A program made the position numbers and the translations under genes. A stretch of DNA of 64,000 bases from Spirochaetota bacterium (GTDB lineage: Bacteria > Spirochaetota > GWE2-31-10), in contig JBGUUT010000126.1 of assembly GCA_045133795.1 (NCBI GenBank), forward strand, positions 7,943 to 71,942, written 5' to 3'. Below the pieces are notes generated by a model that searched no databases, was not told where the DNA came from, and worked only from the letters and a program-made list of their open reading frames with translations. Shown here one piece after another: positions 902-63,944 of this stretch. Each line of letters opens with the position of its first letter. Position 1 is the first letter of the stretch.

Positions 902-1957
902 TTATATATGGTCTATAGTAAGAACTGTTTTCGATTTTGGACTTCCCCAAATTCTTTCAAATTGAGTTATAAATTGATTCGATATTTCAGGATTTAATTC
1001 AGAATTTATATAAAATACAAATGAATTCCTTGTTACTTCCGTGGCTGTATACAATGCGATATACAAAATGTTGTCACAGCGGATATAGGAAAAATACGGA
1101 ATATCATCATAGTATTTTAAACAGAGAGAAGCTTCTTGTCTGTTCATGGCGTTTTTAAATTCAAGATTATTTGAAAATGTATCTTTTAGTTCTTGATATT
1201 TCTTTTTTGTTTCTGTTGCTTTATCAAAGAAATCTTTTGTATCACCATTTCTGATATACGAAAATCTAGCTTTAACTAAATTTGATTCCGGTGATAACGC
1301 CATTATTCTGATTCTGGCACTTTGTGTATTAAGTAAGTTATTTTTAAAAATATCTAATGCTTCGGTAGATGTTTCACCTGTCATGCTTAAAATATCAATC
1401 TCTGTTGCTCTAGAAAATGCTGTTTTAATTATATCTTGGACTTTTGGGTCTATTCGTCTTCCGAGAAGATGAAGTCCCTTTTTATCTTCTCTGTTAAAAG
1501 CTATATTTTCACAATATTTATTATGTTCATATATTCTAAAAATATGCTCAACACTTTGCCGTATCTCATTTTTTGTTAATTCTATATCTTTTGAAATAGG
1601 ATTCATATTTGGATATGGATATGCAATAACATTCATTGCTCCTATATCAAAAGGAATCGAATCCTTAGAATTACCTGCTCTCAAAATAATACAAGGTTTA
1701 CCAGTCATGTGGCGGATTCCTAATTCATAAAAAACATTAGGATTTAAATCTGTAATGTCACATACAACTAAATCGGCTTCTTTAAGATTATGTACTATAT
1801 CAGTTGTAATGATATTTCGAGGAATATCAATTGGTAATAAAATATTGAAGTCATCTCCCAGAGCAGGAGTAAGTATATTATCTTGAACATATCTAGAACG
1901 TTTTCGTTCGGGCGAATCCGCTTCTTTCAATGTACAAATAAAAAACGCTGTTTTCAT
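902..1957 (-). CDS. Protein with an N-terminal nucleoside 2-deoxyribosyltransferase-like (SLOG/Rossmannoid) domain and an uncharacterised roughly 220-aa C-terminal domain
   Basis: 351-aa ORF with RBS AAAGGAG. The N-terminus MKTAFFICTL...EADLVVCDITDLNPNVFYELGIRHMTGKPCIIL matches the NDT/SLOG pattern (buried beta-strand start, D-x-x-D, NPNV-x-YELG with the Glu, GKP). The C-terminal region matches nothing I recognise. Confidence 0.55.
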   Translation of the reverse strand: MKTAFFICTLKEADSPERKRSRYVQDNILTPALGDDFNILLPIDIPRNIITTDIVHNLKEADLVVCDITDLNPNVFYELGIRHMTGKPCIILRAGNSKDSIPFDIGAMNVIAYPYPNMNPISKDIELTKNEIRQSVEHIFRIYEHNKYCENIAFNREDKKGLHLLGRRIDPKVQDIIKTAFSRATEIDILSMTGETSTEALDIFKNNLLNTQSARIRIMALSPESNLVKARFSYIRNGDTKDFFDKATETKKKYQELKDTFSNNLEFKNAMNRQEASLCLKYYDDIPYFSYIRCDNILYIALYTATEVTRNSFVFYINSELNPEISNQFITQFERIWGSPKSKTVLTIDHI

Positions 1958-2126
1958 TCTTATTTCTCCTTTATGTTTTGATTATTTTTACTTTCCATTC
2001 CGGAAAGTTTTTTTCTTTTGACCGGGAGTTCGACTTAGCTTTTTGCCGTTTTTTCCTGATGGGAAAAACTTCGTTCGTTCGCAATGCGAACTCACCTTAG
2101 CTCACGTTCGTCACTCCACGAGAACA

Positions 2127-2227
2127 CCTCTCATAACTGCATGAGAAATGCTCTCATAGCATTATGAGAATCTCTCTCATGCCGTTATGAGAACGTCTTC
2201 ACTCGTACTATGAGAGCCCCTCTCATG
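2127..2227. repeat. Tandem array of four imperfect 20-25 bp palindromic units (CTCTCATA-N5-7-TATGAGA). It may be operator-like and lies in the 5' region of the 902..1957 gene.
   Basis: Read directly: cctctcataactgcatgagaa, gctctcatagcattatgagaa, tctctcatgccgttatgagaa, then the inverted-orientation unit tatgagagcccctctcatgc. Additional dyads lie just upstream: GTTCGCA|TGCGAAC at about 2078-2092 and GTTTTTCC-tgat-GGAAAAAC at about 2049-2070. Confidence 0.6.
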
Positions 2228-2228
2228 C

Positions 2229-2963
2229 TTAATCATCGATTGCGTTACAAGCGTAGTTGTAAGTAATCTCACGTATCGAAGCGAGATTTGCTCCGCCGCT
2301 GTAGTTCGTTTTGATTTTCACGGTTACGGCTCCGGCAGGTACTGTCGACGGTACACGTGCGATTATTTGGCTCGGTTTGTTTACTGTCAGTCGGCGTGTT
2401 ACTCTGTGTTCTGCTCCCGTAGAGTCCACGATAAAGATTCCTTGATTTTGGTCGGCTTCATCGGTGATTTTGATTTTTTCGCCGTCGATTACGATGTCGT
2501 CGCCGATTGTGATTGTGCCGTCTTTGAGTCCTGTGGCACCGTCAGTAATCGCCGTGATTCGTGCAGAGGCTGATGTAGCTCCCATTACTTTCACAGATAT
2601 TCCGTCAAGTGTGCTTCGTAAATCTGCTGTCGGTACAAGGTCTACCGTGCGTTTGTGAGTAGCTGGGTCGAAGCTCGCTGCTTCATTTTCCCAAACTCCG
2701 CTTACTCTCGGCGTGATTTGCACTAAGCCGTCACGGAAACTTGAGCATTCTTGGATAAATGCTTTTACTGCATTGTCACGCAGGTTAAGAATATTGAGGA
2801 TTGTGTCCTTGCGGTATTCGCTTCGTTCGCTGACGATTCTTTCCGCTACGTCTTCGTTTGTCAATGTAGCACCGTTAAGGTGAACATCGGCGATACAGTC
2901 TTTGTCATTGTCTTTTGTGAGTGCGTTCGGTCGTAAGTAGACCTGCCATTGGTTGTTTGCCAT
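2229..2963 (-). CDS. Bacteroidetes-type HU-family DNA-binding protein (HU-HIG N-terminal domain plus DUF4469/Ig-like C-terminal domain)
   Basis: 244-aa ORF with RBS AAAGGAG. The N-terminus MANNQWQVYLRPNALTKDNDKDCIADVHLNGATLTNEDVAERIV follows the HU-HIG pattern (basic start, N-x-LT-x-D, Y/C-x-A-x-V) and FDPATHKRTVDLVPTADLR follows the DUF4469-like pattern. Local GC is clearly higher (about 48%) than the flanks (about 33%). Confidence 0.55.
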   Translation of the reverse strand: MANNQWQVYLRPNALTKDNDKDCIADVHLNGATLTNEDVAERIVSERSEYRKDTILNILNLRDNAVKAFIQECSSFRDGLVQITPRVSGVWENEAASFDPATHKRTVDLVPTADLRSTLDGISVKVMGATSASARITAITDGATGLKDGTITIGDDIVIDGEKIKITDEADQNQGIFIVDSTGAEHRVTRRLTVNKPSQIIARVPSTVPAGAVTVKIKTNYSGGANLASIREITYNYACNAIDD

Positions 2964-3031
2964 AGTAAATACTCCTTTGATTTCTTCTTTCCTTATGTGT
3001 AGTAAAGGCTGGAAGAAAGCAAAGAGAATGT

Positions 3032-3047
3032 AAAAAAAAAAAAAAAA
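3032..3047. repeat. A16 homopolymeric tract (T16 on the minus strand), 69-84 bp upstream of the 2229..2963 gene start
   Basis: 16 consecutive A residues counted in the sequence. Confidence 0.9.
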
Positions 3048-3226
3048 CTGTCAAATTTATTGATAATATATAGGAGTAAAAACATTTTTTTGGGCGTGCA
3101 GTTGGCTTCTTTTCTCCTCTTTGGCTGCCGGCACGCTCTTTTTAGGAAAACGGAAAGGTGAAAGAGGGAAGATGAGAAATGAGAATGAACTCACCGAGAG
3201 GAGCGTCCTTTTCTCTTGGGAGTTAT

Positions 3227-3268
3227 AGAGGGTATTCTCTTTTCATCGCAAAAAAGAGAATACCCTCT
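3227..3268. repeat. Perfect 17-bp-stem hairpin (AGAGGGTATTCTCTTTT / AAAAGAGAATACCCTCT), not followed by a T-run
   Basis: The inverted repeat is read directly and is not a canonical terminator on either strand. Confidence 0.7.
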
Positions 3269-3276
3269 AACTTCTA

Positions 3277-3470
3277 CCAACTTTGAACCAAAGTTGCATT
3301 TTAACGCCGGCTATGCCGGCAAAAAGAGCCTTAAACCTAAGTTGGTTTATAAAACTTTAAACCAAAGTTGCATTTTAACGCCGGCTATGCCGGCAAATAA
3401 AGCTCCAAACCTTGCAAAGTTTTAGAAAAGTTTTGTCCCCAAAACGACCATAACTCGCCGGCTATGCCGG
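3277..3470. repeat. Mosaic direct repeats (about 45-bp unit, present 2.5 times). Each unit carries an AT-rich hairpin (CAACTTTG..CAAAGTTG) and a GC hairpin (GCCGGC-TAT-GCCGGC).
   Basis: aaccaaagttgcattttaacgccggctatgccggcaaa occurs at about 3288 and again at about 3358. cgccggctatgccggcaaaag occurs a third time at about 3447, and the aactttaaacc modules are also repeated. Confidence 0.7.
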
Positions 3471-3518
3471 CAAAAGGAACTTTAAACCCACGTGGTTTGA
3501 AAAGCTTTGAAGAAAGCT

Positions 3519-3920
3519 TTAGTTTTGTTGTTCGCCGTTGTAGTCGTTGATTCCGCCGATTTCGATAATATTTGCATATTTTAAATCAATAAGTTTTTGT
3601 GCTGCAATTTTACTGCGGCGACCGCTTCTGCAATAAACAAAGATTTGTTGTTCTTTATTCGGTAAAATCGTTTCACATGTTCGCTCGCTAATATTATCGT
3701 GCGGAAATAAAACTGCACCCGGAATATGACCGGAAGCAAATTCATCTAAGCTGCGAACATCCAGCAAAATATAATCAGAAGATTCTGACATGATTTTTAA
3801 ACCTTCTTCCATCGAAACGGATTGATAAGTAAGATTTTTTTCAGCTTCTTTTTGATTAATACAGTTGAAAAGGAAAGGAACGCACATAAAAATAATCAAA
3901 TATTTAAAGTAATTTCTCAT
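3519..3920 (-). CDS. Rhodanese-like sulfurtransferase domain protein with a signal peptide
   Basis: Rhodanese active-site loop CRSGRRS, a GHIPGA motif and a hydrophobic N-terminus. Confidence 0.8.
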   Translation of the reverse strand: MRNYFKYLIIFMCVPFLFNCINQKEAEKNLTYQSVSMEEGLKIMSESSDYILLDVRSLDEFASGHIPGAVLFPHDNISERTCETILPNKEQQIFVYCRSGRRSKIAAQKLIDLKYANIIEIGGINDYNGEQQN

Positions 3921-4133
3921 GTTGCAAATGTATAGATGAGATTTTGTAATTTATCAATGATAATCACAACTTATTTTTTTCATGGTAAAAACTTTTTTCA
4001 AAAGTCGACAATTAAGAACTTTTTTTTCTTACCGATAAAAGGAAAAGGGAATTTACATTTTACGTAATTTAAATGTAGATGAGACACAGGAGAGCAATTT
4101 TCTTCTGATATTTTTTGCGGCAATGGGCGGGGT

Positions 4134-6932
4134 ATGTTTTTAAAGAATCTTACTATTAATGGCTTTAAATCGTTTTGTGAAGCATCGGAGATAAAATTTG
4201 ATAAAGGGATTTCGGCAATTGTCGGACCTAACGGTTGCGGTAAATCAAATATTGTAGATGCATTAAAGTGGGTTTTGGGAGAACAAAAAAATCGATCTTT
4301 GCGTGCAAACAATATGACGGATGTTATTTTTAAAGGTACTACCGAAAAAAAAGGTTTGGGACGTGCCGAAGTTCGTTTGACATTGGTAAATGAAAACGGG
4401 TTGTTGCCGTTGGATTTTAATGAAGTAGAAGTTGCTCGTATAATTTATGCAGACGGTGAAAATGAATATTACATCAATAAAGAAAAAGTTCGTTTGAAGG
4501 ATATTCATGAGCTTTTTTTTGATACCGGAGTTGGTAAGTCGGCGTATTCATTTATGGAACAGGGAAAAATCGATATGATTCTTTCCAATAAGCCGGAAGA
4601 CCGTCGTTATATTATCGAAGAAGCTGCCGGAATTACAAAATATAAATCACGAAAACATGAAGCAGAAAATAACCTTAATCGTGCGAATGAAAATATTGTT
4701 CGTGCTCAAGATATTTTTTCTGAGGTTTCCAAACAATACGAATCAATGAAAAAACAAGCTGATAAAGCTCAACGTTATATGGAACTTAAAGACGGCGTGC
4801 GAGATTTGGAAATCGAGCTTGGAATCAACAGACTTATGTTGCAAAAAAATATAAAAGACCGTTTTGCCGGCAAACAGTCAAAAGTCGACGATGAATTAGC
4901 GGCGATTCAGGAAGAAATAGACAGCTTGCAATCTGACGTTTCGGAAAAAATGATTGCGGTTAATAATTTGGAACAGGAAAAAATAGACAGACATCGTGAG
5001 ATAGAAAGAACTGACGGAGAAATCAAAGCTTTGAATGTAAAAAATGCTGCTTTACGTGATAAAGAGGCGACAATTTCCAGTTCATTACGTACCGATGAAG
5101 AAAAGCTCGGTCGATTGGATAAAACGATTGCCGATACTGATGAAGAACTGGCGGCTGTTGATGATGAACGTTTTGATACAGTTTCAAAAATCAGCAGTAT
5201 TGAAAAGGATATTTCTCGTCATAACGAAATGATTTCGCAAATTGACATAGATTTGAAAAAAAATGATGAGCAAATCAAATCATTACACGGTTTGATAAAA
5301 GATTTAGCTGCGGAACAGGCAAGTAAACGAGGTCATTTAAAGGAAATTACAGACGCTTTGATTGTAAAGATTGAAGAGTCGCTAAATGTTTTTGATATGA
5401 ATTCTCGTGAAATTATGACGCTAAAGGAAAGTGTCGGCCATGATATTCCGAGAGTACGTGAAGAATTCAGAACTCGTCGTCAATTTTTGGAAGATGTTTT
5501 GAAGATTAGAAATATTCCGTCAGACAGCAGTGCGTTTTTTCAGCAGTTGGAAGATTTCGGAAAACATTTGCAAGATTTGGAAGAAAAACTCGGACACGCC
5601 GGCGAAAATGTAAATAAGTATGTGAAAGCGACTGAAATCTTTATGAATGATATTTTCAGCCCGGAAGGTATTATCCAGAGAAAACGTAAGACAGAACAGG
5701 AAATCGCAGAGTACGATAAACGTATGCATAATTACAGAATTGAAATTGAGAATTTGGAACGAAATTCTGAAACTAAAGAAGAGCAAAAGGAAAATTACAG
5801 AAAGCTTGTGGAAGAAGCAAAAGTAATTTATTCGTCGTTATTGGAAAAACAAAAATCTTTTGACCGTGAAATACAGCGTATTACAAAGATTAAAAATGAA
5901 TATATTGCACAGAAATCGGAAATTGAACGAACAATAAAATCTCGTAACGAAGAGCTTGAAGAAGTTCAATATGAAATTGACGAACTTGACGGTTTGTTGA
6001 GAACCGAACGCAACAAGAAAAAGAAGATAGAAGAACGTATTGAAGAATTGGACAATTTGATTCAATCGGAAAGTGAAAAGATGTCTCAACAGCAGTTGAG
6101 AATGCGTAATATAAACGAGTCTTTCTTAAAAAAGAAAGCGGAAATCGAAGAATTGAAGCTCAAACTTGCGGAAGTAGATACGACAATTAGCGAGATTTAT
6201 CGAAATGCGTACGACAATCTTTCCATTAACTTAAAGGAATATGAGAATTCCGAAAAATATAACACCGGGCGAGAAGCTTCCGTTATCCGAGAAACTCTTT
6301 CCGGAATAAAAAATGACATGATGTCATTGGGGCAAGTAAATATGGCGGCAATGCAGGAATGCGAATCGTTGAAAGAACGTTATGATTTACTTATGTCACA
6401 ATTAGAAGATTTGCAAAAAGGTAAAGATGATTTGCTTACTATAATAAATGAGCTTAACGGAAAGTCTCAAGAGATGTTTGAAAAAACTTATGTGGAAATC
6501 AGAAAGAATTTTCAGATGATTTTCTCTAAGTTATTTAACGGCGGAAAGGCTGATATTTTACTTACGGAACCGGAAAATCTTCTTGAAACCGGTATTGATG
6601 TAGAAGTGCAGCCGCCGGGACAGACTCGAAAAAGTATTACGCTTCTTTCCGGAGGACAGCGAACAATGACGGCAATTGCGTTGATGTTTGCTACTTTTAT
6701 GGTAAAACCGTCGCCGTTTTGTTTGCTGGATGAAATTGACGCAGCGTTGGACGAAGCTAATGTTACTCGTTTTATAGAGTTGGTTCAGGATTTTAAAGAC
6801 CAAAGCCAGTTTGTAATGATTACGCATAATAAAAAAACTATGTCTGCCGCAAATGTAATGTACGGTGTAACTCAAGAAACTATGGGGGTATCGAAAATTG
6901 TTTCTGCAAAATTTATTGAAAAAATTCTCTGA
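4134..6932 (+). CDS. smc: Chromosome segregation protein SMC (short form, 932 aa)
   Basis: The N-terminus FKSF...GPNGCGKSNIVDALKWVLGEQ and the C-terminus LSGGQRTMTAIAL...LLDEIDAALD are SMC head motifs, joined by a long coiled-coil middle. Confidence 0.9.
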   Translation: MFLKNLTINGFKSFCEASEIKFDKGISAIVGPNGCGKSNIVDALKWVLGEQKNRSLRANNMTDVIFKGTTEKKGLGRAEVRLTLVNENGLLPLDFNEVEVARIIYADGENEYYINKEKVRLKDIHELFFDTGVGKSAYSFMEQGKIDMILSNKPEDRRYIIEEAAGITKYKSRKHEAENNLNRANENIVRAQDIFSEVSKQYESMKKQADKAQRYMELKDGVRDLEIELGINRLMLQKNIKDRFAGKQSKVDDELAAIQEEIDSLQSDVSEKMIAVNNLEQEKIDRHREIERTDGEIKALNVKNAALRDKEATISSSLRTDEEKLGRLDKTIADTDEELAAVDDERFDTVSKISSIEKDISRHNEMISQIDIDLKKNDEQIKSLHGLIKDLAAEQASKRGHLKEITDALIVKIEESLNVFDMNSREIMTLKESVGHDIPRVREEFRTRRQFLEDVLKIRNIPSDSSAFFQQLEDFGKHLQDLEEKLGHAGENVNKYVKATEIFMNDIFSPEGIIQRKRKTEQEIAEYDKRMHNYRIEIENLERNSETKEEQKENYRKLVEEAKVIYSSLLEKQKSFDREIQRITKIKNEYIAQKSEIERTIKSRNEELEEVQYEIDELDGLLRTERNKKKKIEERIEELDNLIQSESEKMSQQQLRMRNINESFLKKKAEIEELKLKLAEVDTTISEIYRNAYDNLSINLKEYENSEKYNTGREASVIRETLSGIKNDMMSLGQVNMAAMQECESLKERYDLLMSQLEDLQKGKDDLLTIINELNGKSQEMFEKTYVEIRKNFQMIFSKLFNGGKADILLTEPENLLETGIDVEVQPPGQTRKSITLLSGGQRTMTAIALMFATFMVKPSPFCLLDEIDAALDEANVTRFIELVQDFKDQSQFVMITHNKKTMSAANVMYGVTQETMGVSKIVSAKFIEKIL

Positions 6933-7446
6933 TTTGTGGCATCACGGTAAATCTAAAATATCGGTAGTAAAAAGTGATGTCTTTCCTAAGCATAAGGACG
7001 ATTATTTTATTTATCGAAATAAGCGTGAAATTATAATTATTTTTGCTTCATTGTTAATCGTGTTGTTTTGTGCAGCTTCGATAACTCATCATGCGGTAAA
7101 AAGCGGACAGCGAAAAAAGCAGTTTGCTCAGGCTGAAGAACAGGTAAAAAATGAAAATGTTGAGGTCGAAAAAAAAGCTGTAAGTAAAAAAAAGAAACAA
7201 AAAGTTTCTCCGGCAAGAGAAGTAAAAGCCGGAGTATTAAATGAAGAAGTTTTATTTTTACTCAACGGAGCTGTGGCTTATCCCGTATCCGATAAGGAGC
7301 AGTTTTTTGCAGATTATATCGAAATGTACCCTTTAAATAATTATAACCTTGCCGATACTAATCTTATCATGGATGAATACAACAAGATTATTGAGCAATC
7401 AATAAACGACAGTTGTAGTTTTAACTTTGAACGCAGGAGAAAATAG
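6898..7446 (+). CDS. Hypothetical small membrane protein (the true start may be an internal ATG)
   Basis: The ORF has one predicted TM helix (IIIIFASLLIVLFCAASI) and a Lys-rich region, and it overlaps the 3' end of smc. Confidence 0.4.
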   Translation: MFLQNLLKKFSDLWHHGKSKISVVKSDVFPKHKDDYFIYRNKREIIIIFASLLIVLFCAASITHHAVKSGQRKKQFAQAEEQVKNENVEVEKKAVSKKKKQKVSPAREVKAGVLNEEVLFLLNGAVAYPVSDKEQFFADYIEMYPLNNYNLADTNLIMDEYNKIIEQSINDSCSFNFERRRK

Positions 7447-9716
7447 TGAAAAGATTAGGCGGGATAATCACTGTTTTACTTGTCGTTTTTTGTACGGGAG
7501 CAGTGATTTCTTGTGCCGGTACAAAAAATGCAATAGTAAAAGACTCAAACAAAGAAAATAACACATCAAAAAAATCAGCGGAAAATCAGGCGGAATCTTT
7601 ATCAAATCCGCTTGAGGAATCTAACCAAGTCGATAATACGACCGACTCTGTGGAAAATGACGAATTAACACAAGGTTTAAATCAGACTGAAAATGTACAA
7701 CCGGAAGCTTTTTTGGAAACAGAAAGTCTTACAGCACAACTGTTTGATGTTCCGGGAGTTTTGTTTCAGGAAGAGATTGCTGAGGAAGAATCAGAAATCG
7801 AAGCTGCGATTAATCAAGAAGAAATTGCACATAGCGAAAATATTTCCGGTAACGGCGGAAGCGTACTTTTTACATTAAAAAGAGCTGAAGAAATTAAAAA
7901 CGGTGAATCTGTAGAAACAGAAATTACTGAAGCTGATATTTCTAACGTAGAGCGACCGACAATGACTGTTTTAGAAGAACGTTTGCTCGGTTATAACGGA
8001 AAGTCAGTTTTTAATAATGAAGTGGTAACAGCTGAACCTTCTGTGTCTACTTTTGAAAATTATGAAACTGAACTTGCGGTTTTACCGGCAATTTCTGTTG
8101 AGCCGATTAAATCGGAAGCAACTATTCAGGAAAATGCGTATTTAGCACAGATTATTTCATTACCTAAAATTGCGGAAGAGACTTTGGGCGAAATTGCAAA
8201 AGAAGAAAAATTGTCAGATGAAGAAATTGTTGCAGATATTGAAATTGCAGAAGTTTCAGATGATGAAAATATGTTGTTGTCTGAGCCTAAACCTTTAGAA
8301 ATTGCGTTGGGAAATTCTGTGACTCCTTTCGGATTGCCGGGAAGTTTTCTTTCTCCGCTTGCCAATCCGGATACTGTAGTAAAAGCAATGAATGACAAAA
8401 CGGAAAATGCAGAAACAGAACAAGCTGTTGAGGAAAAAGTAATTTCTGATGTTGTCGAAATGAAAGCTTCTAAGAAAGAAGAAAATCCTGTTGAAATAAA
8501 AAAAGATGTTAAAACTCAACAGTATGTTGAAATTCAACAAAAACCGATTTTATCGACAGAATCTGTTCCGGAAGTTGCATTTGCCGCAAAAAAAACGGAA
8601 GAACAGAATGTTGCTTTAAATGAGATACTTTCTGTGAATAAAATAGAAATGCCTGCTGCGGAAAATAAAGCAGTTTCTGCGAAAAAAGCTTTTCCGGAAA
8701 TGAAAGTTTCGGTAGTTTATCCGCAAGTCGGAGAGCCGGAAGAACTTGAAGAAGTTGAAGATTTTGAAATGAAACCGGATTTTGTTTATCCGCAAGAAAA
8801 AATTTCAGGATTGGAAAATCAGGAAACAATTATCAGAATGCAAGGTGACGGTTGGCGAATAGATTCAATGAATCATAATGCAATGAAGCTTTTGGAACGA
8901 AAAAATAATAGAGACGGTAATACGACTTTCAGAATAAAGAACGGTAATGCCGGGACTGAACAGATTAAATTTACTCGCTATAATGAAGATGAAAATCGTC
9001 ATGAAATTCGTGTTTATTCCGTTGATATAAAACCGGTTTTATTAACTGCAGAAAATAATAAAAAGAATGCTCCTAAAGCAAAAAAGGCAAGTAAATCAAA
9101 AGGAATCGATGATTACAGAAAAACTCTTGCAGACCATTTATTTGCGGATGAAAATTTTGCACAGGCTTCTGTATATTATAAGAAGTTGATAGACGAAAAT
9201 ATTGTAGACAGTGAACTTTTGTATAAGGCTGCTCATTCAATGAAAGAAGCCGGAAATACAAAAAATGCGATGGAATATTATCAAAAGAATTTGGCAGAAG
9301 AAGGGAATCCTTTTTATGATGATGCGATTATCGAATATATTCATCTGTTGAAAGAACAAAAAGAGTTTGATAAGGCGATAAATGTTGTTTATGAACGCGG
9401 TTTATCTAAAAGTGTAAGTGAAGATTGTACTCAAAAATTGTACAGAACATTGGGTGATTTATTTTTTAATGTCAAAAATTATACCGAAGCAATCAGAACT
9501 TACAAAACCGTATTAAGTTTGTATCCGGCAGGTAACGGTGAGGATAAAGCAATGTTCTATTTGGCGTATGCTTTGGAATTGCAGGAAAATCCGGAATTTA
9601 AGGAAGCACAACGTTTTTATCGAGAGCTTTTGGATGTTTATCCTGAATCGCAATATGTGAATTTAAGTCGTTCCAGAATAGGTTTTATAGACCGACATTA
9701 TATTAAAGTTAATTAA
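7446..9716 (+). CDS. Lipoprotein with an acidic low-complexity middle region and C-terminal TPR repeats
   Basis: GTG start, a lipobox (VISCAG), and TPR-like helices at the C-terminus (YYKKLIDEN...AMEYYQKNL...). Confidence 0.6.
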   Translation: MKRLGGIITVLLVVFCTGAVISCAGTKNAIVKDSNKENNTSKKSAENQAESLSNPLEESNQVDNTTDSVENDELTQGLNQTENVQPEAFLETESLTAQLFDVPGVLFQEEIAEEESEIEAAINQEEIAHSENISGNGGSVLFTLKRAEEIKNGESVETEITEADISNVERPTMTVLEERLLGYNGKSVFNNEVVTAEPSVSTFENYETELAVLPAISVEPIKSEATIQENAYLAQIISLPKIAEETLGEIAKEEKLSDEEIVADIEIAEVSDDENMLLSEPKPLEIALGNSVTPFGLPGSFLSPLANPDTVVKAMNDKTENAETEQAVEEKVISDVVEMKASKKEENPVEIKKDVKTQQYVEIQQKPILSTESVPEVAFAAKKTEEQNVALNEILSVNKIEMPAAENKAVSAKKAFPEMKVSVVYPQVGEPEELEEVEDFEMKPDFVYPQEKISGLENQETIIRMQGDGWRIDSMNHNAMKLLERKNNRDGNTTFRIKNGNAGTEQIKFTRYNEDENRHEIRVYSVDIKPVLLTAENNKKNAPKAKKASKSKGIDDYRKTLADHLFADENFAQASVYYKKLIDENIVDSELLYKAAHSMKEAGNTKNAMEYYQKNLAEEGNPFYDDAIIEYIHLLKEQKEFDKAINVVYERGLSKSVSEDCTQKLYRTLGDLFFNVKNYTEAIRTYKTVLSLYPAGNGEDKAMFYLAYALELQENPEFKEAQRFYRELLDVYPESQYVNLSRSRIGFIDRHYIKVN

Positions 9717-9728
9717 TTTTGACTGGCT

Positions 9729-9771
9729 GAGACTGCTCAGAGGTAAATTACCGAGCAGTCCGGCTTTTTTG
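9729..9771 (+). terminator. Rho-independent terminator
   Basis: Stem GACTGCTC/GAGCAGTC followed by a T6 run. Confidence 0.5.
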
Positions 9772-9948
9772 TATATATGCAAGTTTTACGTTTTTCCTTT
9801 GGGATTAATAAAGGTGTTCTATACTTGACAAAAGGTAATGTAAAATTTTAAAAGAGTGCCATTAATAAAGGTAAATAAGCTGAAGTGGAAAAATCGGATA
9901 TGATTTTAGCTTCTTCTTAAAAAATAAAAAAAAGAGTGAGGTTCTGTT

Positions 9949-53725: not shown

Positions 53726-53890
53726 TTAGTTTTTCTCGTCTGAAGTTTGTAATACGTAATATTTAAAAACATTTAGTAAATTTTCTTGTAAGACCCCTTG
53801 TTCTGTTTATTTTGGCTTGAATGAAATAGAGGAACATTATATAGTTAAAAATATTTGATAAATTTTCTTGCTACTTGGGAGGTGGAGAGA

Positions 53891-56800
53891 ATGAGAAGGG
53901 CTTTTGTTCGAACCGGAAATATTTTTGGGTATGTAAGTTTATTTCTGATGTTTATATTTTTCGGTTGTACACAGGAATGTATGAATGGTGATAAGCCTGA
54001 AAAAAAAGTCGAAAAAAATAAACATTCTACGACTTTACAGGATGTGGTAAATAATGCAGCTGCCGGTGAAGAAATTGATTTAGCGGAATATGAAAGCATT
54101 ACAGACTACAATGCCGTAATAAGTAAGCAACTTGTTATTAAAAACGGAAGCTTGAGTAATGCAAAATTAGTTATAGATTCCGAAAATGTCAAACTTGATA
54201 AAGTAAAAGGTGTTTCCGTAACAACATTGTCAGCTTCTTCTTTAACTATAACTGACAGTAGTATTAATGAGTTACTGTTTATCGGGAAAAACTATTCAGA
54301 CAACAGCACTTCAAGAAGTTCTAAATCATATTCTTTTATGAAAGAAAGCAGCGTGACGATGAACGGAATATCAACCGTTAATTGCGTTACTATGAATTTC
54401 AGTAAAGCGAAATTAAAAATATCGGACGGTTCTTCTGCCGAAACTGTAGCAATTTTAGATGATGCGGCAATTTCCGGAAAAATTGAAGAATTAGTAATTA
54501 AAGAATTAAATACTGCGGTGACTTTAGAAAAAGCAAATATTACAAATGTTGTAATGGACGGTTTTAATTCTCAACTTGCGGTATTGGATACAGAGACTGT
54601 ATTAGAAAATGTATCTATAAATACGGAATGTAAAATCTTGTGTAATGCGGTTATGTCGGATGAAATGGAAAAGGCGTTTACTTCAGACGGTGTATTGACT
54701 GTTGTGGATATGACGGAAAAACCGCAATTGGAACGTTTGTTAATATTAAGTATGCCTACAAATATTTTCAGCGACAACGGTGAAATAGATTTTACCGGAT
54801 TGAAAGTTTGCGGTGTATATGAAAATGTTACGTCAAAAGTTTATACGGGTGTCGGCGAAGAAGAAAACAAAGAAGCTTTTATGAAATTGGAAACCGATTA
54901 TAAAATAGAAGTGATTTCGGAAGAAGACGGTATTATAAAAGTTCGTATAAGCAAAGACGGAAAAGAATGTATTTTTGAAATGCTTGATTCCGAGAAAATT
55001 GCAAAGTATACGGTAAAACATTGTCAGGAAAATGCAGAAAATGAGAATTACGAAATTATTGTAACTGCAGATACAGAAACAAAAACCGGAAAAGTTGGCG
55101 AACTTACAAATGCAGAGGCAAAAACTTATGAAGGTTATACTGTTGAGCCTATAGAGCAAGTTGAAATAACGGCAGACGGAAATGCTACAGTATATATTAA
55201 ATACAAGAGAAACAGAGTTACATTGACGTTGAAATTTGACGACGGAACAACAACTACAGATAAAAAAATAAATGGAAAATATGGAGTAACGGTACCGACA
55301 GTAGAGACTCCGACTAGAAATGGATATAATTTTGCCGGTTGGAATCCGCAGTTACCGGAGACTTTCCCTGCCGAAAGTACGACATATACGGCTAAGTGGG
55401 CAAAAGAGGGAGATTATATTATCACGTACGAGCTTAACGAAGGAACAAATGCCGACAGTAATCCGCCAAGTTATAATGAAGAAACATTGCCTATAACATT
55501 AGCCGATGCAACCAGAGAAGACTATATATTCGGCGGCTGGTACAAAGATAAAGATTGTACAGAAGAAAACAAAGTGACCAAGATCCCTAATGGTTCAACC
55601 GGAAATATTACGCTTTACGCAAAATGGATTGCACGAACTTTAGAGCAGACGTTTGAGGCTGGCTATTCAAATCAAAACAATGCTAATGCAAACGGTGTTT
55701 CATATAATACGGACAAAGGTTATGGTGTTGTAACGGTAAAAGCTCCGGATTCTACCGAATCAGTTTGGGATTATTATGTAAGGTCAAAGGATGTGACTTT
55801 TACGTATAAAAAAAATTATACGGTTTCGGTAGATTTAAAAGCAGACAAAGCGAGCGTTGTTGCGATTGCAGCGGCAAGAGCGGATATGTTTTTTACAGTC
55901 GGAACAGAATGGACAACTTGTACTTTTGAAACCGGCTATTTGGAAACAGACCTTTCGAATAAAGAACAAAATTGTATAACAATCGGTTCCGGATTGGTTG
56001 GAACGCTTTCTATATCAAATCTGGTTATTACAAAAACAGAGGAAAATGACAACTTGCCGACATTAAGTTTCTTTATTGAAAAAGCCGGTATTAATACTTA
56101 TTTGAATTCAGATTTTGCAACGAAAAATATTATCGAAGTTGAGAAAGCAAAAGATGCTGAGACTGAAACTAAAATACTCGGATATAAGCTTACACTTAAT
56201 TCTACCGGTGTGTCTTTACAATTGAGAGATTATGCTCCTGTTTCAGGAAATAAATTAAACAGGGCGATTTTTAATCTTAAAACAGACAATGAGATCTTGA
56301 ATTCTGCCGTGGTGGCTTCGGTGGCTTCTTCAAGCGGTTATGTAAATTGTTGGAATAAGGCGTCCGTTATAGGAACTTCCGGAAAAGATTGCGAGGTATG
56401 TTTCCCTTCATATTCAGAAGAGACTTCCGGCGTGGAAGAGTGTGCGGTAGAGGGGATTATTAGCAAAGATGCGAACAATGGAATCACAGAACAGGTCGGA
56501 AATACGATAACTATTACGAACTTTTCAATTACTAATGTCACTGATTTGGCAAATTCTGGCAAAACTTTTGCAATAAAGAAAACAGAAAACAACTCAGATA
56601 TTTGGAGTAAATCGAGCTCAGTGCCTTTTTACGTAGACGTAACTATTCCTGCTAATAATCACACTGTTTTTGATGTACTTTTAGGAAATAAAGTTGAAGA
56701 GGGTAAATCTTTCAACTGGGATGATGTTACTCGATTCTTGTACCAAAAGACTTCCGGGGAACTTATCGATAATTCGAATGTAGTTAAATATGTGATTGAC

Positions 56801-57385
56801 AAAGGTAGTAGTGGTAATCCGACATATAAATTGGTTAATACATCGACAGAGAGCGATGTTACTTGTATAATTACACTTACAAAAGACCTAAAGGTTGAAA
56901 TCTCAGAAGGATTAGTTATTAATCTTGATGATGAAACTAATAACCTTAAACAGACTATTAGAGAGTACATAAATGAAGTTGCTGGTGATGTAAACGAAAA
57001 GACAATAAGAATAACTGGTGTAGATGGCAATAACTATATAAATGATATATCTGAAGGTTTGGGGAAAGGTTCTTCTGATGCTCGTATAAATCTAGATTTA
57101 AGCGGAGTGACGGGATTGAGTGAGATTCCGGAATATGCTTTTGAAGATTGCGATAACTTGGTAAGCATTACAATTCCTGCCGGTGTAAATATAATCGGAG
57201 CAAATGCTTTTAGTGATTGTACTTCGTTAGAAGAAGTTTACTTTATGGAGACTGGTGTTATGTGGGATTTGATGGATACTGAAATTACAGTTGTGGGAAC
57301 TATCACAGTTAGTACTGATGCCAAGGAAAATGCAAGAAACCTACTAGCAAACTCTTCTTATGATTGGGGTAAATCAGATTATTAA
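53891..57385 (+). CDS. Large surface lipoprotein with Listeria-Bacteroides (Flg_new) repeats and C-terminal BspA-type leucine-rich repeats
   Basis: RBS GGAGG and a lipobox (FFGC). The Flg_new-type repeats include NGYNFAGWNP...YTAKWA and EDYIFGGWYKDKDC...LYAKWIA. The BspA-like LRR is IPEYAFEDCDNLVSITIPAGVNIIGANAFSDCTSLEEVYF. Confidence 0.7.
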   Translation: MRRAFVRTGNIFGYVSLFLMFIFFGCTQECMNGDKPEKKVEKNKHSTTLQDVVNNAAAGEEIDLAEYESITDYNAVISKQLVIKNGSLSNAKLVIDSENVKLDKVKGVSVTTLSASSLTITDSSINELLFIGKNYSDNSTSRSSKSYSFMKESSVTMNGISTVNCVTMNFSKAKLKISDGSSAETVAILDDAAISGKIEELVIKELNTAVTLEKANITNVVMDGFNSQLAVLDTETVLENVSINTECKILCNAVMSDEMEKAFTSDGVLTVVDMTEKPQLERLLILSMPTNIFSDNGEIDFTGLKVCGVYENVTSKVYTGVGEEENKEAFMKLETDYKIEVISEEDGIIKVRISKDGKECIFEMLDSEKIAKYTVKHCQENAENENYEIIVTADTETKTGKVGELTNAEAKTYEGYTVEPIEQVEITADGNATVYIKYKRNRVTLTLKFDDGTTTTDKKINGKYGVTVPTVETPTRNGYNFAGWNPQLPETFPAESTTYTAKWAKEGDYIITYELNEGTNADSNPPSYNEETLPITLADATREDYIFGGWYKDKDCTEENKVTKIPNGSTGNITLYAKWIARTLEQTFEAGYSNQNNANANGVSYNTDKGYGVVTVKAPDSTESVWDYYVRSKDVTFTYKKNYTVSVDLKADKASVVAIAAARADMFFTVGTEWTTCTFETGYLETDLSNKEQNCITIGSGLVGTLSISNLVITKTEENDNLPTLSFFIEKAGINTYLNSDFATKNIIEVEKAKDAETETKILGYKLTLNSTGVSLQLRDYAPVSGNKLNRAIFNLKTDNEILNSAVVASVASSSGYVNCWNKASVIGTSGKDCEVCFPSYSEETSGVEECAVEGIISKDANNGITEQVGNTITITNFSITNVTDLANSGKTFAIKKTENNSDIWSKSSSVPFYVDVTIPANNHTVFDVLLGNKVEEGKSFNWDDVTRFLYQKTSGELIDNSNVVKYVIDKGSSGNPTYKLVNTSTESDVTCIITLTKDLKVEISEGLVINLDDETNNLKQTIREYINEVAGDVNEKTIRITGVDGNNYINDISEGLGKGSSDARINLDLSGVTGLSEIPEYAFEDCDNLVSITIPAGVNIIGANAFSDCTSLEEVYFMETGVMWDLMDTEITVVGTITVSTDAKENARNLLANSSYDWGKSDY

Positions 57386-57573: not shown

Positions 57574-57595
57574 GTATTACGTACATTCGCCACAG

Positions 57596-57712
57596 CCGGA
57601 ACGATGTTATTCCATTAAGCTCGAACGATGTGTTTTAGCTAGCCGGAACGATGTGTTTCATTAAGCTGGAACGATGTGTTTCATTAAGCTGGAACGATGT
57701 GTTCACGTTGCG
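57596..57712. repeat. Tandem repeat of about 23 bp x 5 (consensus GGAACGATGTGTTTCATTAAGCT), contiguous with no spacers
   Basis: Copies read at 57596, 57622, 57644, 57668 and 57691. The last copy is degenerate. Confidence 0.75.
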
Positions 57713-61226: not shown

Positions 61227-63944
61227 ATGAGATATTTTTTGATTGTAATGACGTGTTTTATGTATTTGTCTTTTCTTGCTTGTTCGGCTCCGACGGAAGA
61301 TTTGAAAAATACAGAAAATGAGAGCAGTAATAAGGTAATCATAGATATTCAAAAAAATCAGTTTTCTCTTACTTACGGCGGCGAAGAAATAAAAGATAAT
61401 AAAGCTTTTGCAAAAAGCGGTGCCGCATTAAAAGTTTTGACAGATATTTCTGATAAGACCGGAGATTTGTCTTTCCGATGGTACAAAGATGATAAAGAAA
61501 TTTCGGGTGCTACAAAGGATTCTTATGTCGTTACTGAATATGCAACCTATTACTGTGTTGTGTCAAATCTTATAGCCGGGGAAGATTATAAGGAAGATGT
61601 TACAACAGATAAGGTTGAAATAGTTCAAAATGAGATTTCATTTCAGGATGTTGTAAACAATGCAGAAAGCCGTTCGGCAAAAAAGTTGACTATTACCGAT
61701 ACTGCGGTTTCTTATGATTCGGAAGAAATTGAGCTGGGAGATGGTTTCAGTCAATATTCTTTTACCGGAGGAGATGCGGTAATAAAAAAGAGTTTGGTGA
61801 TTTCATCATCAGCTGGTTCTTCACTTTTAAATAAATCTAAATTATCAATAGATGTAGATAAAGTAACTTTGAATAAAGTGACGCTTTCTACGGTCGAAGC
61901 AACGTCTTTGCTCGGAAAAGGTTCACTTACAATAACAGATTCAAAATTAAGTAATTTGTTGATAAACGGCGGTGGTTATAACTCTATTCATTTAGAGGGG
62001 GCCAATGATATCGAAAATGCCAGTTTCGGGAAGTTGGATGACGGCAGAACTGAATATACTCGTGTAGAAATTGCTGCAAACGGAAAAACTACGATTGGTA
62101 CTTTAGATGTTTCTGAAGGTAGCGGAATATTGGATTCTAAAGGAAACGGCGTGGTAAAAAATATGATATTCAACGGTAATTCACGCAGTGGTAACGATGA
62201 AAAGTTTTCTGTGGAAAGCTTGGCTCTTGATTTATCTTCGAATGTTACAATTCCGGAAGGCGTTATTACGATTTATTTTGGTAAAGATAACGATGGAAAA
62301 TATGAACCGAAATTTAAAATATTTTTATCTCCTACTGTAATGCTTAATGAAACTTTTTTAAATCAGGCGGGATTAAAACTTTGGGGGGATGATTTCTATG
62401 GTTATTCATGGCGTGATGTGGATAGCGAAAAAAAATATGAGATAACAATCTTAACAAGAAGTGTTATCAGCGATTTATTGAAAGATGATACAAAGATTCT
62501 TAAGTTGTCTTGTGCGGCAAAGGAAAAAGCAATTTTTTTACCGCATATTATGCCGACAGAATGCTTAATGTTTAAAAATAATAATTGGATTACTGCCGTA
62601 AAACAATTTCATTTGACGCATTATTCTAAATTGTATGAATCTTTAAGTAATCACGAAGATACAATCGATATTGATGATCAGGAAGAAGTAGAATTGGAAA
62701 CTCTTTTACTTAATCCGGATACTGACGATTACGTATATCCGGATTTAAAAGGGTATGAAAATGCTTTTTCCGTAGTTCATGATAATAACCGTAATGTTTA
62801 TGCTACGATAGCTTGCGGAAATGTTACGAGTACCACAGACTTAACACGTTATGGGCACTTTTATATAAAAATGTTGCGTGAAGAAGATATTACCGACAGT
62901 TTGAACGGAAAAGAAAGTAATATTAGTATGGAAAAAATATTTGAATTACCGGATTATCTTACAGACTTAAGTTATTTAGGGGGGGTATCTTCTGACTATT
63001 CTGCTGTAAATACAAAAGTTGCTTATTTTATGAATGTAGGCGATTTTTGTTTTAACAATAATTTTGTAGCTTCTTTTGCCAGATTGGCTGTAAACGGTGA
63101 CGGAACTAAGTTGTATTTATTGACCGGTGCGGACGGTAAGGATATGACCGGAGAAACTTACAAGCTTTGTGTTTATGATTTAACAAGTAAAAGTGATAGA
63201 ATTTCACCGACAGAAATCAGTGTGACTTGGAAATCTGGAGTTCCGCAAGCAATGGCATTGAGTGAAGACGGAACTAAGTTGTATGTCGCAGAAATTGCTT
63301 ATAGTGTAGATGGTTATGAAGGGATTTCTGTAGAAGATTATAATAGTTATATAAATACTTATACATTAAACGAAAATTCAGCTGTTTATTCTGGAGAATT
63401 ACTTTCTTATTGTGATTTGCCGGATACAAGCGATTTTGGATACGCCAATTTAAACAGTAAACTTTTCTTTGGTAAAACTCGTGTCGGAGTCAGCGACATG
63501 AAAACCGGTAATGGATGTTTGTACATAACAACGGAGAATGTAAATAGGCACGTTTCTGTTTCGCCGAAAGTTACTCGTTATAGCCGTGGTGCTTTAACTA
63601 TTGTAGATTTAAGTACCGGAGAGATTAAAGCAGGAAAAGAAGCAATCGGTTGGTCGGAAAGTAATATTCCTACAGAGGCGAAAGAGTATTCTTGTTTTTA
63701 CGGTCCGACAAGAATTTTAGCTGTAGAACCGAAAAAGATTATAATCCTTGATGACGGAAACATTGATGATGAGGAAGTTCTTGATTTCTCTTTGAATATG
63801 TCAGGTTCTGCAATATGGAGCGAAAAATTCTTAAAGCAGAAAAATAGAGTGGCAGTATACGATTTGGAAAAAGAAACGTTAAACTTTGCCAATATGGGGT
63901 CTGCTTTCGGTTTGTATTCAACTCGAGTTAACGGTTCATTCTAA
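61227..63944 (+). CDS. Large surface lipoprotein, paralogous at its N-terminus to the 53891..57385 protein
   Basis: Lipobox (LACS). ISFQDVVNNAESR...LTITDTAV parallels TTLQDVVNNAAAG...LTITDSSI in the other protein. It is Asp/Gly-rich with beta-propeller-like repeats. Confidence 0.65.
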   Translation: MRYFLIVMTCFMYLSFLACSAPTEDLKNTENESSNKVIIDIQKNQFSLTYGGEEIKDNKAFAKSGAALKVLTDISDKTGDLSFRWYKDDKEISGATKDSYVVTEYATYYCVVSNLIAGEDYKEDVTTDKVEIVQNEISFQDVVNNAESRSAKKLTITDTAVSYDSEEIELGDGFSQYSFTGGDAVIKKSLVISSSAGSSLLNKSKLSIDVDKVTLNKVTLSTVEATSLLGKGSLTITDSKLSNLLINGGGYNSIHLEGANDIENASFGKLDDGRTEYTRVEIAANGKTTIGTLDVSEGSGILDSKGNGVVKNMIFNGNSRSGNDEKFSVESLALDLSSNVTIPEGVITIYFGKDNDGKYEPKFKIFLSPTVMLNETFLNQAGLKLWGDDFYGYSWRDVDSEKKYEITILTRSVISDLLKDDTKILKLSCAAKEKAIFLPHIMPTECLMFKNNNWITAVKQFHLTHYSKLYESLSNHEDTIDIDDQEEVELETLLLNPDTDDYVYPDLKGYENAFSVVHDNNRNVYATIACGNVTSTTDLTRYGHFYIKMLREEDITDSLNGKESNISMEKIFELPDYLTDLSYLGGVSSDYSAVNTKVAYFMNVGDFCFNNNFVASFARLAVNGDGTKLYLLTGADGKDMTGETYKLCVYDLTSKSDRISPTEISVTWKSGVPQAMALSEDGTKLYVAEIAYSVDGYEGISVEDYNSYINTYTLNENSAVYSGELLSYCDLPDTSDFGYANLNSKLFFGKTRVGVSDMKTGNGCLYITTENVNRHVSVSPKVTRYSRGALTIVDLSTGEIKAGKEAIGWSESNIPTEAKEYSCFYGPTRILAVEPKKIIILDDGNIDDEEVLDFSLNMSGSAIWSEKFLKQKNRVAVYDLEKETLNFANMGSAFGLYSTRVNGSF

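Follow-up and report, generated by a model that had tools for sequence, protein, structure and literature searches.

The 64,000-nucleotide stretch analysed here (the window) comes from contig JBGUUT010000126.1 of a Spirochaetota bacterium. Positions 2964–3518 are a 555-bp non-coding gap, as the initial annotation had reported, and are flanked on either side by minus-strand genes. One of these, at 3519–3920, encodes a 133-aa rhodanese-domain protein (Pfam PF00581, E 1.9e-15) with a lipoprotein-like N-terminus. Its 3′ flank is the site of a hairpin-rich repeat element, which occupies positions 3183–3520 on the minus strand and is the subject of this report.

Architecture of the element

On the minus strand the element runs from a hairpin at the stop codon, through three head-to-tail modules and the linker GTAGAAGT, to a long hairpin and a tail. 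Its parts are as follows.

3501–3520, minus strand: hairpin AAAGCTTT-CTTC-AAAGCTTT then TTT(C), read from the sequence and predicted in the minimum-free-energy fold
3425–3501, minus strand: module 1, nearest the rhodanese gene (covariance model R2, 66 bits, E 2e-10; repeat family D1)
3352–3424, minus strand: module 2 (model R2, 80.5 bits; repeat family D1)
3274–3350, minus strand: module 3 (model R2, 99 bits, E 1.5e-16; repeat family D1)
3226–3269, minus strand: long terminal hairpin with 18-bp perfect arms, TAGAGGGTATTCTCTTTT and AAAAGAGAATACCCTCTA, and loop TTGCGATG (inverted repeat I1)
3183–3225, minus strand: conserved tail TATAACTCCCAAGAGAAAAGGACGCTCCTCTCGGTGAGTTCATTC, in which similarity to other copies stops at GTTCATTC (3190–3183)

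The modules share a plan of 74–77 bp: a hairpin H1 (AAACC-loop-GGTTT), a T-rich linker, a GC-rich hairpin H2, and a hairpin H3 (CAACTTTG-GTT-CAAAGTTG). In module 1, H1 is AAACC..GGGTT and is followed by the T-rich linker, H2 is GCCGGC-ATA-GCCGGC (3457–3471), and H3 is GTTTTG-GGGA-CAAAAC (3430–3445), a compensated variant standing in for the AT-rich hairpin. Module 2 combines an imperfect H1 (AAAAC-TTTGCAA-GGTTT) with H2 GCCGGC-ATA-GCCGGC (3380–3394) and H3 AACTTTG-GTT-TAAAGTT. Module 3, which terminates in the linker GTAGAAGT, carries H1 TAAACC-AACT-TAGGTTTA, H2 GCCGGC-ATA-GCCGGC (3306–3320) and H3 CAACTTTG-GTT-CAAAGTTG (3278–3296).

The initial annotation had described a mosaic of direct repeats with paired hairpins, and the repetition is real. 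The direct-repeat family D1 has three copies, at 3279–3338, 3353–3412 and 3430–3489 (identity 100, 90 and 65%, respectively). The 15-mer GCCGGCTATGCCGGC occurs exactly three times, at 3306–3320, 3380–3394 and 3457–3471, and nowhere else in the 64 kb; the chance expectation is 0.01, so the repeats are not due to chance. Several details were revised. The 70-bp period is replaced by start-to-start spacings of 74 and 77 bp, and the two-hairpin module of about 45 bp by a three-hairpin module of about 75 bp. Module 1, counted earlier as a partial third copy, is complete, its AT-rich hairpin having been swapped for the H3 variant at 3430–3445. The hairpin placed at 3227–3268 is indeed perfect, but its arms are 18 bp rather than 17 bp long (3226–3243 and 3252–3269, separated by an 8-nt loop). 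The region given as 3227–3500 extends at both ends, the tail reaching 3183 and the additional hairpin at 3501–3520 meeting the rhodanese stop codon.

This last hairpin covers the final two bases of the stop codon (3519–3521) and is kept in all rhodanese-locus contigs; it may belong to the rhodanese gene, as a weak terminator, or to the element, as its first piece. At the other end, the long perfect hairpin and the tail of about 45 bp, with terminus GGTRGTTCATTC, make up a fixed end piece, and all complete copies of the element have the long hairpin after their final module. The left end, (AT)GAACC, possibly recurs in inverted orientation as GGTTCAT in the tail, a possible 7-bp inverted repeat that was seen by eye.

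The element folds far better than shuffled sequences on both strands (z −7.3 and −9.2), with a minimum free energy of −122 kcal/mol over 326 nt. No consistent long-range pairing that would close a whole module over H2 was found by eye. Promoter and terminator scans found no promoter-like or terminator-like site in 3183–3520 on either strand, which bears out the earlier view that the hairpins are not ordinary terminators. Within the window, matches to the module model R2 were confined to the three modules at 3274–3501, and a blastn comparison of the whole window with all related loci revealed no further shared repeats outside 3170–9800.

Copies at other loci

The modules are not confined to this locus, a possibility that the initial annotation had left open; copies lie next to other genes in related contigs. 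These contigs (designated by L numbers) are metagenome assemblies, possibly from several related species. A metagenome scan with the H3 motif identified L122 and L130, in which the flanking genes are different, as well as the rhodanese locus in L127. In a covariance-model search of the kind proposed earlier, model R2 retrieved modules both in the window and in the related contigs. As gene callers often call open reading frames (ORFs) through repeats, we used the array's translation, which is free of stops, as the query of a protein-database search; this returned nine short ORFs, none with a Pfam domain. When 1.84 billion cluster representatives were searched without a filter, 14 ORFs were found. 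These small numbers point to a narrow, lineage-restricted repeat family. A 69-aa ORF at 3216–3425 reads through the repeats in the window itself. A Pfam scan found no family in it, and its relatives in the two billion-scale protein searches (9 and 14 matches, respectively) were limited to ORFs, presumably spurious, through other repeat copies, consistent with its earlier dismissal as spurious.

Counting the rhodanese locus, modules were found in at least eight gene contexts. L137 has two copies of the element, adjoining LRR_5 genes; in L139 the element lies between a Flg_new gene and relB, and in L140 it follows an FGE-sulfatase/Flg_new gene. Two arrays, of about five and four modules, are present in L141/L142. 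The genes neighbouring the copies in these five contigs encode LRR_5, Flg_new, FGE-sulfatase, Big_3 and RelB domains. The gene beside the L141 array was considered as an Rpn/PD-(D/E)XK nuclease, a lead that was unsupported, as a Pfam scan gave no family.

One L137 copy is identical to window positions 3196–3282, which comprise the GGTAGAAG linker, the long hairpin and the tail as far as GGACGCT. The tail is identical in L137 up to that point and related in L138, L139, L141 and L122. The left end is in every case joined to a T-run. In L137, L139 and L140 a canonical terminator precedes the element, which begins directly behind its T-tract, as in GGAGCGGA...TCCGCTCC-TTTTTTAT|GAACC, and in L122, L141 and the rhodanese locus it begins after TTTTAT or TTTTC beside a stop codon. 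Examples of the junctions are ...CTCCTTTTTTAT|GAACC, ...TTTTTTT|GAACC and ...TTTTAT|AAACC. The element is co-oriented with the upstream gene in most contexts, and the R2 matches place modules head-to-tail on one strand in every array. L122 has an additional inverted copy, tail to tail with the first.

Scans of other collections gave unrelated matches, and exact-sequence look-ups of the two proteins flanking the gap returned no record. A search for GCCGGCTATGCCGGCAAA in a genome collection that lacks the source species returned 103 matches, all of them unrelated (coding sequence or the repeats of other genomes), and the H3 motif matched only unrelated coding sequence in a viral-contig scan. The 15-mer GCCGGCTATGCCGGC does form the tip of longer multi-copy hairpin repeats, such as ATAAGGGTTTT-GCCGGCTATGCCGGC-AAAACCCTTAT, in three unrelated metagenome-assembled genomes, one each from Omnitrophota (L001, L053), Cyanobacteriota (L027, L032, L040, L069, L092, L103) and Acidobacteria (L015, L035, L047, L056, L064). 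Convergence or coincidence may explain this sharing.

Variation at the rhodanese locus

Rhodanese orthologues in ENA metagenome assemblies are 91–98% identical and have equivalent downstream arrays. L104–L110, L127 and L138 have a common gene order, in which an SMC gene and the rhodanese gene are followed by arrays of differing module number: about one canonical module in L107 and L138, three in the window and L106, and 4–5 in L104, L108 and L109. Nearly all of the rhodanese-locus contigs stop inside the array or shortly past it, as expected of an assembler meeting a repeat. The DNA past the long hairpin also varies from strain to strain, and at the position of the next gene in the window (an HU-DNA_bdg/DUF4469 gene) other sequence is found in L104, L106, L107, L108 and L138.

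Some rhodanese-locus strains have an additional, different module (type B), a 70-bp unit located within the last rhodanese codons in six contigs. In the alignment it is a clean 70-bp indel, bounded by CGAC on one side and AAAAC on the other; AAA(G/A) stands at each of its ends, and the insert provides a new rhodanese stop codon. Judged from this alignment, the indel bears the mark of insertion or excision rather than of slippage.

Conservation of the hairpins

We aligned 24 distinct modules for structure scoring; a model-based alignment of 35 matches gave the same picture. With the three-hairpin structure 84% of cells were paired, compared with 51% when the partners were slid by one column. 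Changes on both sides of a pair were seen in four H2 pairs and 4–5 H3 pairs, and none of 500 shuffles reached the observed covariation score. All three hairpins are kept by compensatory changes. H2 alone has at least seven perfectly paired stems (GCCGGC, GTCGGC/GCCGAC, GCGGAC/GTCCGC, GCAAGC/GCTTGC, GCAGGC/GCCTGC, GCCGAC/GTCGGC and GCGAC/GTCGC); the perfectly paired variants at the rhodanese locus include GCCGGC/GCCGGC, TGTCGGC/GCCGACA, TGCAAGC/GCTTGCA, GCGGAC/GTCCGC and GCCGG-gcaatg-CCGGC. On the gene-sense strand there are 38 G-U pairs as against nine A-C mismatches, and much of this excess traces to a few inherited variants.

The long hairpin has at least seven stem versions at the same position, and the version in the window recurs identically in L109, L137 (twice) and L138. 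Its loop, TTGCGAT(G/A), is kept in three stem versions, and most versions have the flanks TAG...CTA-TAAC. In L130 (about 2145–2170, reverse) and L108 (about 4440–4470) unrelated DNA takes the place of the right arm, following on from the left arm and the first part of the loop; the join sequences are ..CTCTTTTTTGCG and ..GGCTCTTTGC, respectively. The loop may be a breakpoint here, or the joins may be assembly artefacts. In L139 (about 1470–1510, reverse; compared with L122 910–990) the right arm has been lost through a deletion that runs from a AAAAGAAAAG in the hairpin arm to its direct repeat in the tail. On the face of the sequence this is an example of element decay by slippage.

Interpretation

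We consider it probable, at roughly 70%, that a modular interspersed repeat, lineage-specific and non-autonomous, is represented by one copy at window positions 3183–3520 (minus strand) of this uncultured, probably spirochaete-like gut bacterium. This reading rests on the dispersal of the copies, their composite architecture, the strain-variable module number and the whole-module indel, and also on the T-run junctions behind stop codons and terminators and the compensatory maintenance of the hairpins. Among the options offered by the initial annotation, a REP-like (repetitive extragenic palindrome) or genome-specific repeat is the supported one; it accords with modules in at least eight gene contexts, with variable module number between strains and with contig breaks inside the arrays. 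As a selfish intergenic repeat the element is of an ordinary kind, and it opens no new category of system; the family itself seems to be undescribed, and no description of such repeats was found in the searchable literature on interspersed repeats of Treponema and other spirochaetes.

The element copies would arise at the DNA level. A mobilising enzyme would recognise either the hairpins in single-stranded DNA or T-rich targets, and the arrays would then lengthen and shorten as modules slip or recombine unequally. Given its place in 3′ flanks, the element would be passively transcribed as part of the 3′ untranslated region (UTR) at any locus that has no terminator ahead of it, the rhodanese locus being such a case. 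REP-type hairpins in 3′ flanks can protect mRNA. The hairpins of the present element might act as barriers to 3′ exonucleases or stall ribosomes near the stop codon, and such putative RNA-level effects would be side effects rather than the reason for the element's existence.

Several points weigh against an interspersed repeat. The module model matches a single locus in the 64 kb, a density far below that of classical REP or BOX repeats, and no transposase, RAYT or integrase gene was found among the scanned ORFs of the window or beside the copies. At 7 bp, the proposed terminal inverted repeat is short, and it is tentative; the sole duplication-like flank is the AAA of the type-B indel. The eight or more loci were collected from metagenome contigs of maybe several species and do not represent a per-genome count. 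Finally, the preponderance of G-U pairs over A-C mismatches (38 versus 9) weakly favours folding of the gene-sense strand and would also fit selection on RNA.

One alternative is that the modules are a functional structured RNA, either tandem small RNAs (sRNAs) derived from the rhodanese 3′ UTR or a cis-acting 3′-UTR element for stability or regulation. The hairpins covary, G-U pairs are in excess on the gene-sense strand, most copies lie just 3′ of a gene in the same orientation, and no terminator separates the rhodanese stop codon from the array. However, the array is without promoter-like sites and has no Rfam family, and in L137, L139 and L140 the copies lie behind an efficient-looking canonical terminator (GC hairpin and T-tract), so that the element there would mostly not be transcribed. 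Both orientations occur in L122, the number of modules varies freely from about one to five at a single locus, the G-U excess comes largely from a few inherited variants, and both strands fold equally well. We therefore regard a functional RNA as unlikely, including the duplicated sRNA suggested by the initial annotation. Position 3′ of genes and stable hairpins, together with the precedent of terminator-like repeats in the pneumococcal SPRITE family (PMC3049150), might instead suggest a stack of terminators or insulators that separates the rhodanese gene from its downstream neighbour. But on neither strand does a T-run follow any of the hairpins, and the T-run of the sense strand precedes H2; the scan found no terminator-like site in 3183–3520; and several copies stand behind a genuine terminator, where they would be redundant. 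This explanation is very unlikely. Less credible again, to the point that we would almost discard it, is a purely local minisatellite, produced by tandem duplication of the rhodanese 3′ flank and absent elsewhere. Within the window the modules do occur only at the rhodanese locus, and strains differ in the number of copies, much as for a variable-number tandem repeat, but modules, long hairpin and tail lie beside unrelated genes in L122, L130, L137 (twice), L139, L140 and L141.

Another alternative is that the hairpin modules and the long hairpin are attC-like recombination sites marking the edge of a gene-cassette region, which would explain the strain-variable genes downstream of the array. 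Chromosomal integrons occur in Treponema species, and the attC sites of T. denticola measure 63–68 bp (PMC3607928); as the gene content of the window is spirochaete-like, we built an attC model (R1) from five published T. denticola sites. It gave no match with default filters and, with filters off, only generic hairpin matches of at most 13.7 bits, the best being an unrelated hairpin, with no site in the window or the related loci. An attachment-site remnant in the form first suggested is thus not supported. Some observations nevertheless fit. Sequence downstream of the array at the rhodanese locus is strain-variable, L130 and L108 diverge within the long-hairpin loop, the long hairpin begins GTTAGAG and finishes TATAAC, and L137 has an element-gene-element arrangement. 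The type-B module also has TTAAGGTGCAAC..GGCTGA in common with 'denti2', an attC site of T. denticola (sequences from PMC3607928), with a local alignment score of 32 against a shuffle maximum of 24, so that none of 300 shuffles reached it; this motif is a hint of common ancestry or a common host lineage, not of membership. On the other side, GTT and AAC at the outer stem ends are the reverse of the R″/R′ arrangement, no integrase gene was found among the scanned ORFs of the window, the tandem modules have no ORFs between them, and the divergence in hairpin loops could be deletion or assembly artefact. We doubt that the sites are attC-like. There is a similarly slim chance that the elements are recombination sites of an undescribed cassette-exchange system in gut or rumen spirochaetes, related by descent to Treponema integron attC. 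Breakage and joining would then take place in or beside the long hairpin, and such a system would explain the strain-specific downstream genes and the link with surface-protein (LRR_5, Flg_new, Big_3) and RelB genes.

If the element is an interspersed repeat, as we favour, there are practical consequences. The 69-aa ORF and its database relatives are apparently spurious, and annotation should mask this region as repetitive; in assembly, the arrays are breakpoints of metagenome contigs of this organism. The element can rewrite the last codons of a gene, and its strain-variable module number is a possible typing marker. Biologically, it would be a modular hairpin repeat outside the well-studied Proteobacteria and Firmicutes that lands behind stop codons and terminators, and it offers a starting point towards the enzyme that moves such elements in this lineage.

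Comparison with known families

In architecture the element is closest to pneumococcal BOX and, more loosely, to REP and the bacterial interspersed mosaic elements (BIMEs). BOX of S. pneumoniae (boxA, tandem boxB, boxC) is likewise a composite intergenic repeat whose inner tandem module varies in number between strains, and it has fixed ends; both are predicted to form stem-loops, lie mainly downstream of genes, can alter gene ends, and vary enough between strains to break assemblies or serve typing (PMC3049150). No sequence relation to BOX was seen. The element has a fixed 3′ piece (long hairpin and tail), but no distinct 5′ piece that would correspond to boxA was identified, and its modules are 74–77 bp with three hairpins rather than the approximately 45 bp of boxB. 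Its terminal inverted repeats and target duplications are tentative, no empty site was found for the full element, its host belongs to a different, probably spirochaete-like phylum, and its density is apparently lower (one locus in 64 kb, compared with about 125 BOX in 2 Mb).

REP and BIME sequences are extragenic GC-rich palindromes kept by compensatory changes, in mosaic clusters with conserved linkers; their cluster length is strain-variable, and they are species-specific and located in 3′ flanks (PMC2817692). The element resembles them in these respects. A REP consists of a GT(A/G)G head and a GC-rich imperfect palindrome, and orientation alternates within BIMEs (PMC2817692), whereas H2 is preceded by TTT(T) rather than GTAG, the lone GTAG lying in the linker before the AT-rich long hairpin, and all modules are head-to-tail. 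There is no sequence relation, no RAYT gene was seen, and copies are not known to reach hundreds, where REP often exceeds 100 per genome.

The long hairpin shares with the pneumococcal SPRITE an 18-bp duplex, and both SPRITE and the element are strongly enriched at the 3′ ends of coding sequences (PMC3049150). SPRITE, however, has a long U-rich tract after the stem, which the hairpin at 3226–3269 has not, and this hairpin is merely the end piece of a larger modular element. Treponema attC sites and the element are both structure-conserved, sequence-variable imperfect palindromes of similar size, located 3′ of genes in variable regions, and one module type has the motif of about 20 nt in common with 'denti2'. 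The element differs in lacking the R″/R′ AAC...GTT arrangement, the bulged-G L box and ORFs between units, and no intI was found nearby.

Other known classes were excluded. Rfam 15 gave no match at gathering thresholds across the whole window, and at a permissive E-value the gap gave only generic hairpin matches far below the cut-offs. No tRNA or tmRNA was found by scanning, and a tRNA-like reading was rejected on anatomy. A CRISPR array was rejected, as the whole 74–77-bp unit is repeated and there are no unique spacers, and no cas families were found among the scanned window ORFs (42 ORFs of at least 150 aa and a few shorter ones); the same scans found no PF01797 (RAYT, IS200/IS605-like) or integrase families. 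An intrinsic terminator was rejected because the T-run on the sense strand lies 5′ of H2 and not after a hairpin.

Other features of the window

Two features lie downstream of the element and outside it.

2229–2963, minus strand: HU-DNA_bdg and DUF4469 gene (Pfam)
3027–3054, minus strand: sigma-70-like promoter TTGACA-16-TACATT for this HU-like gene (promoter scan, 10/12 matches; minus-strand reading)

The promoter is located about 130 bp past the end of the element, which therefore lies upstream of, and not inside, the next transcription unit. An A16 run at 3032–3047 (T16 on the minus strand) forms the entire spacer of this promoter. As slippage in the length of the run would shift the spacing between −35 and −10, it is a candidate phase-variable promoter.

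Further hairpins occur nearby. Just downstream of the HU-like gene, at 2127–2215 (minus strand), there are four consecutive hairpins with TCTCAT/ATGAGA arms and a 23-nt period, and TTCTCAT occurs twice at about 3168–3185, adjoining the element tail. The HU-like gene thus lies between hairpin repeats. At 2030–2100 (minus strand) a two-hairpin unit, GTTCGCATTGCGAAC ... GTTTTTCC-CATCA-GGAAAAAAC, resembles by eye units in L141 (inside the long hairpin) and L137. The 2-kb window holding the HU-like gene has a GC content of 41%, compared with 31–38% in other 2-kb windows.

The genes of the window carry strong Shine-Dalgarno sites, and among their products are a flagellar rod protein, a chemoreceptor, RNase Y, LolA, Lgt and Flg_new/LRR_5 surface proteins. 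A Bacteroidota host, suggested by the HU-DNA_bdg/DUF4469 gene and by a TAnnTTTG-like box, was rejected in view of these Shine-Dalgarno sites, the sigma-70-type promoter and the flagellar rod, chemoreceptor, RNase Y and LolA proteins. Two large ORFs have no Pfam family, one at 902–1957 (minus strand, 351 aa), which falls in the strain-variable region downstream of the element, and one at 61227–63944 (plus strand, 905 aa). Downstream of a 1176-aa Flg_new and LRR_5 surface-protein gene at 53855–57385 there is a 23-nt tandem repeat at 57594–57703 (AGCTGGAACGATGTGTTTCATTA, 4.7 copies, 81% matches).

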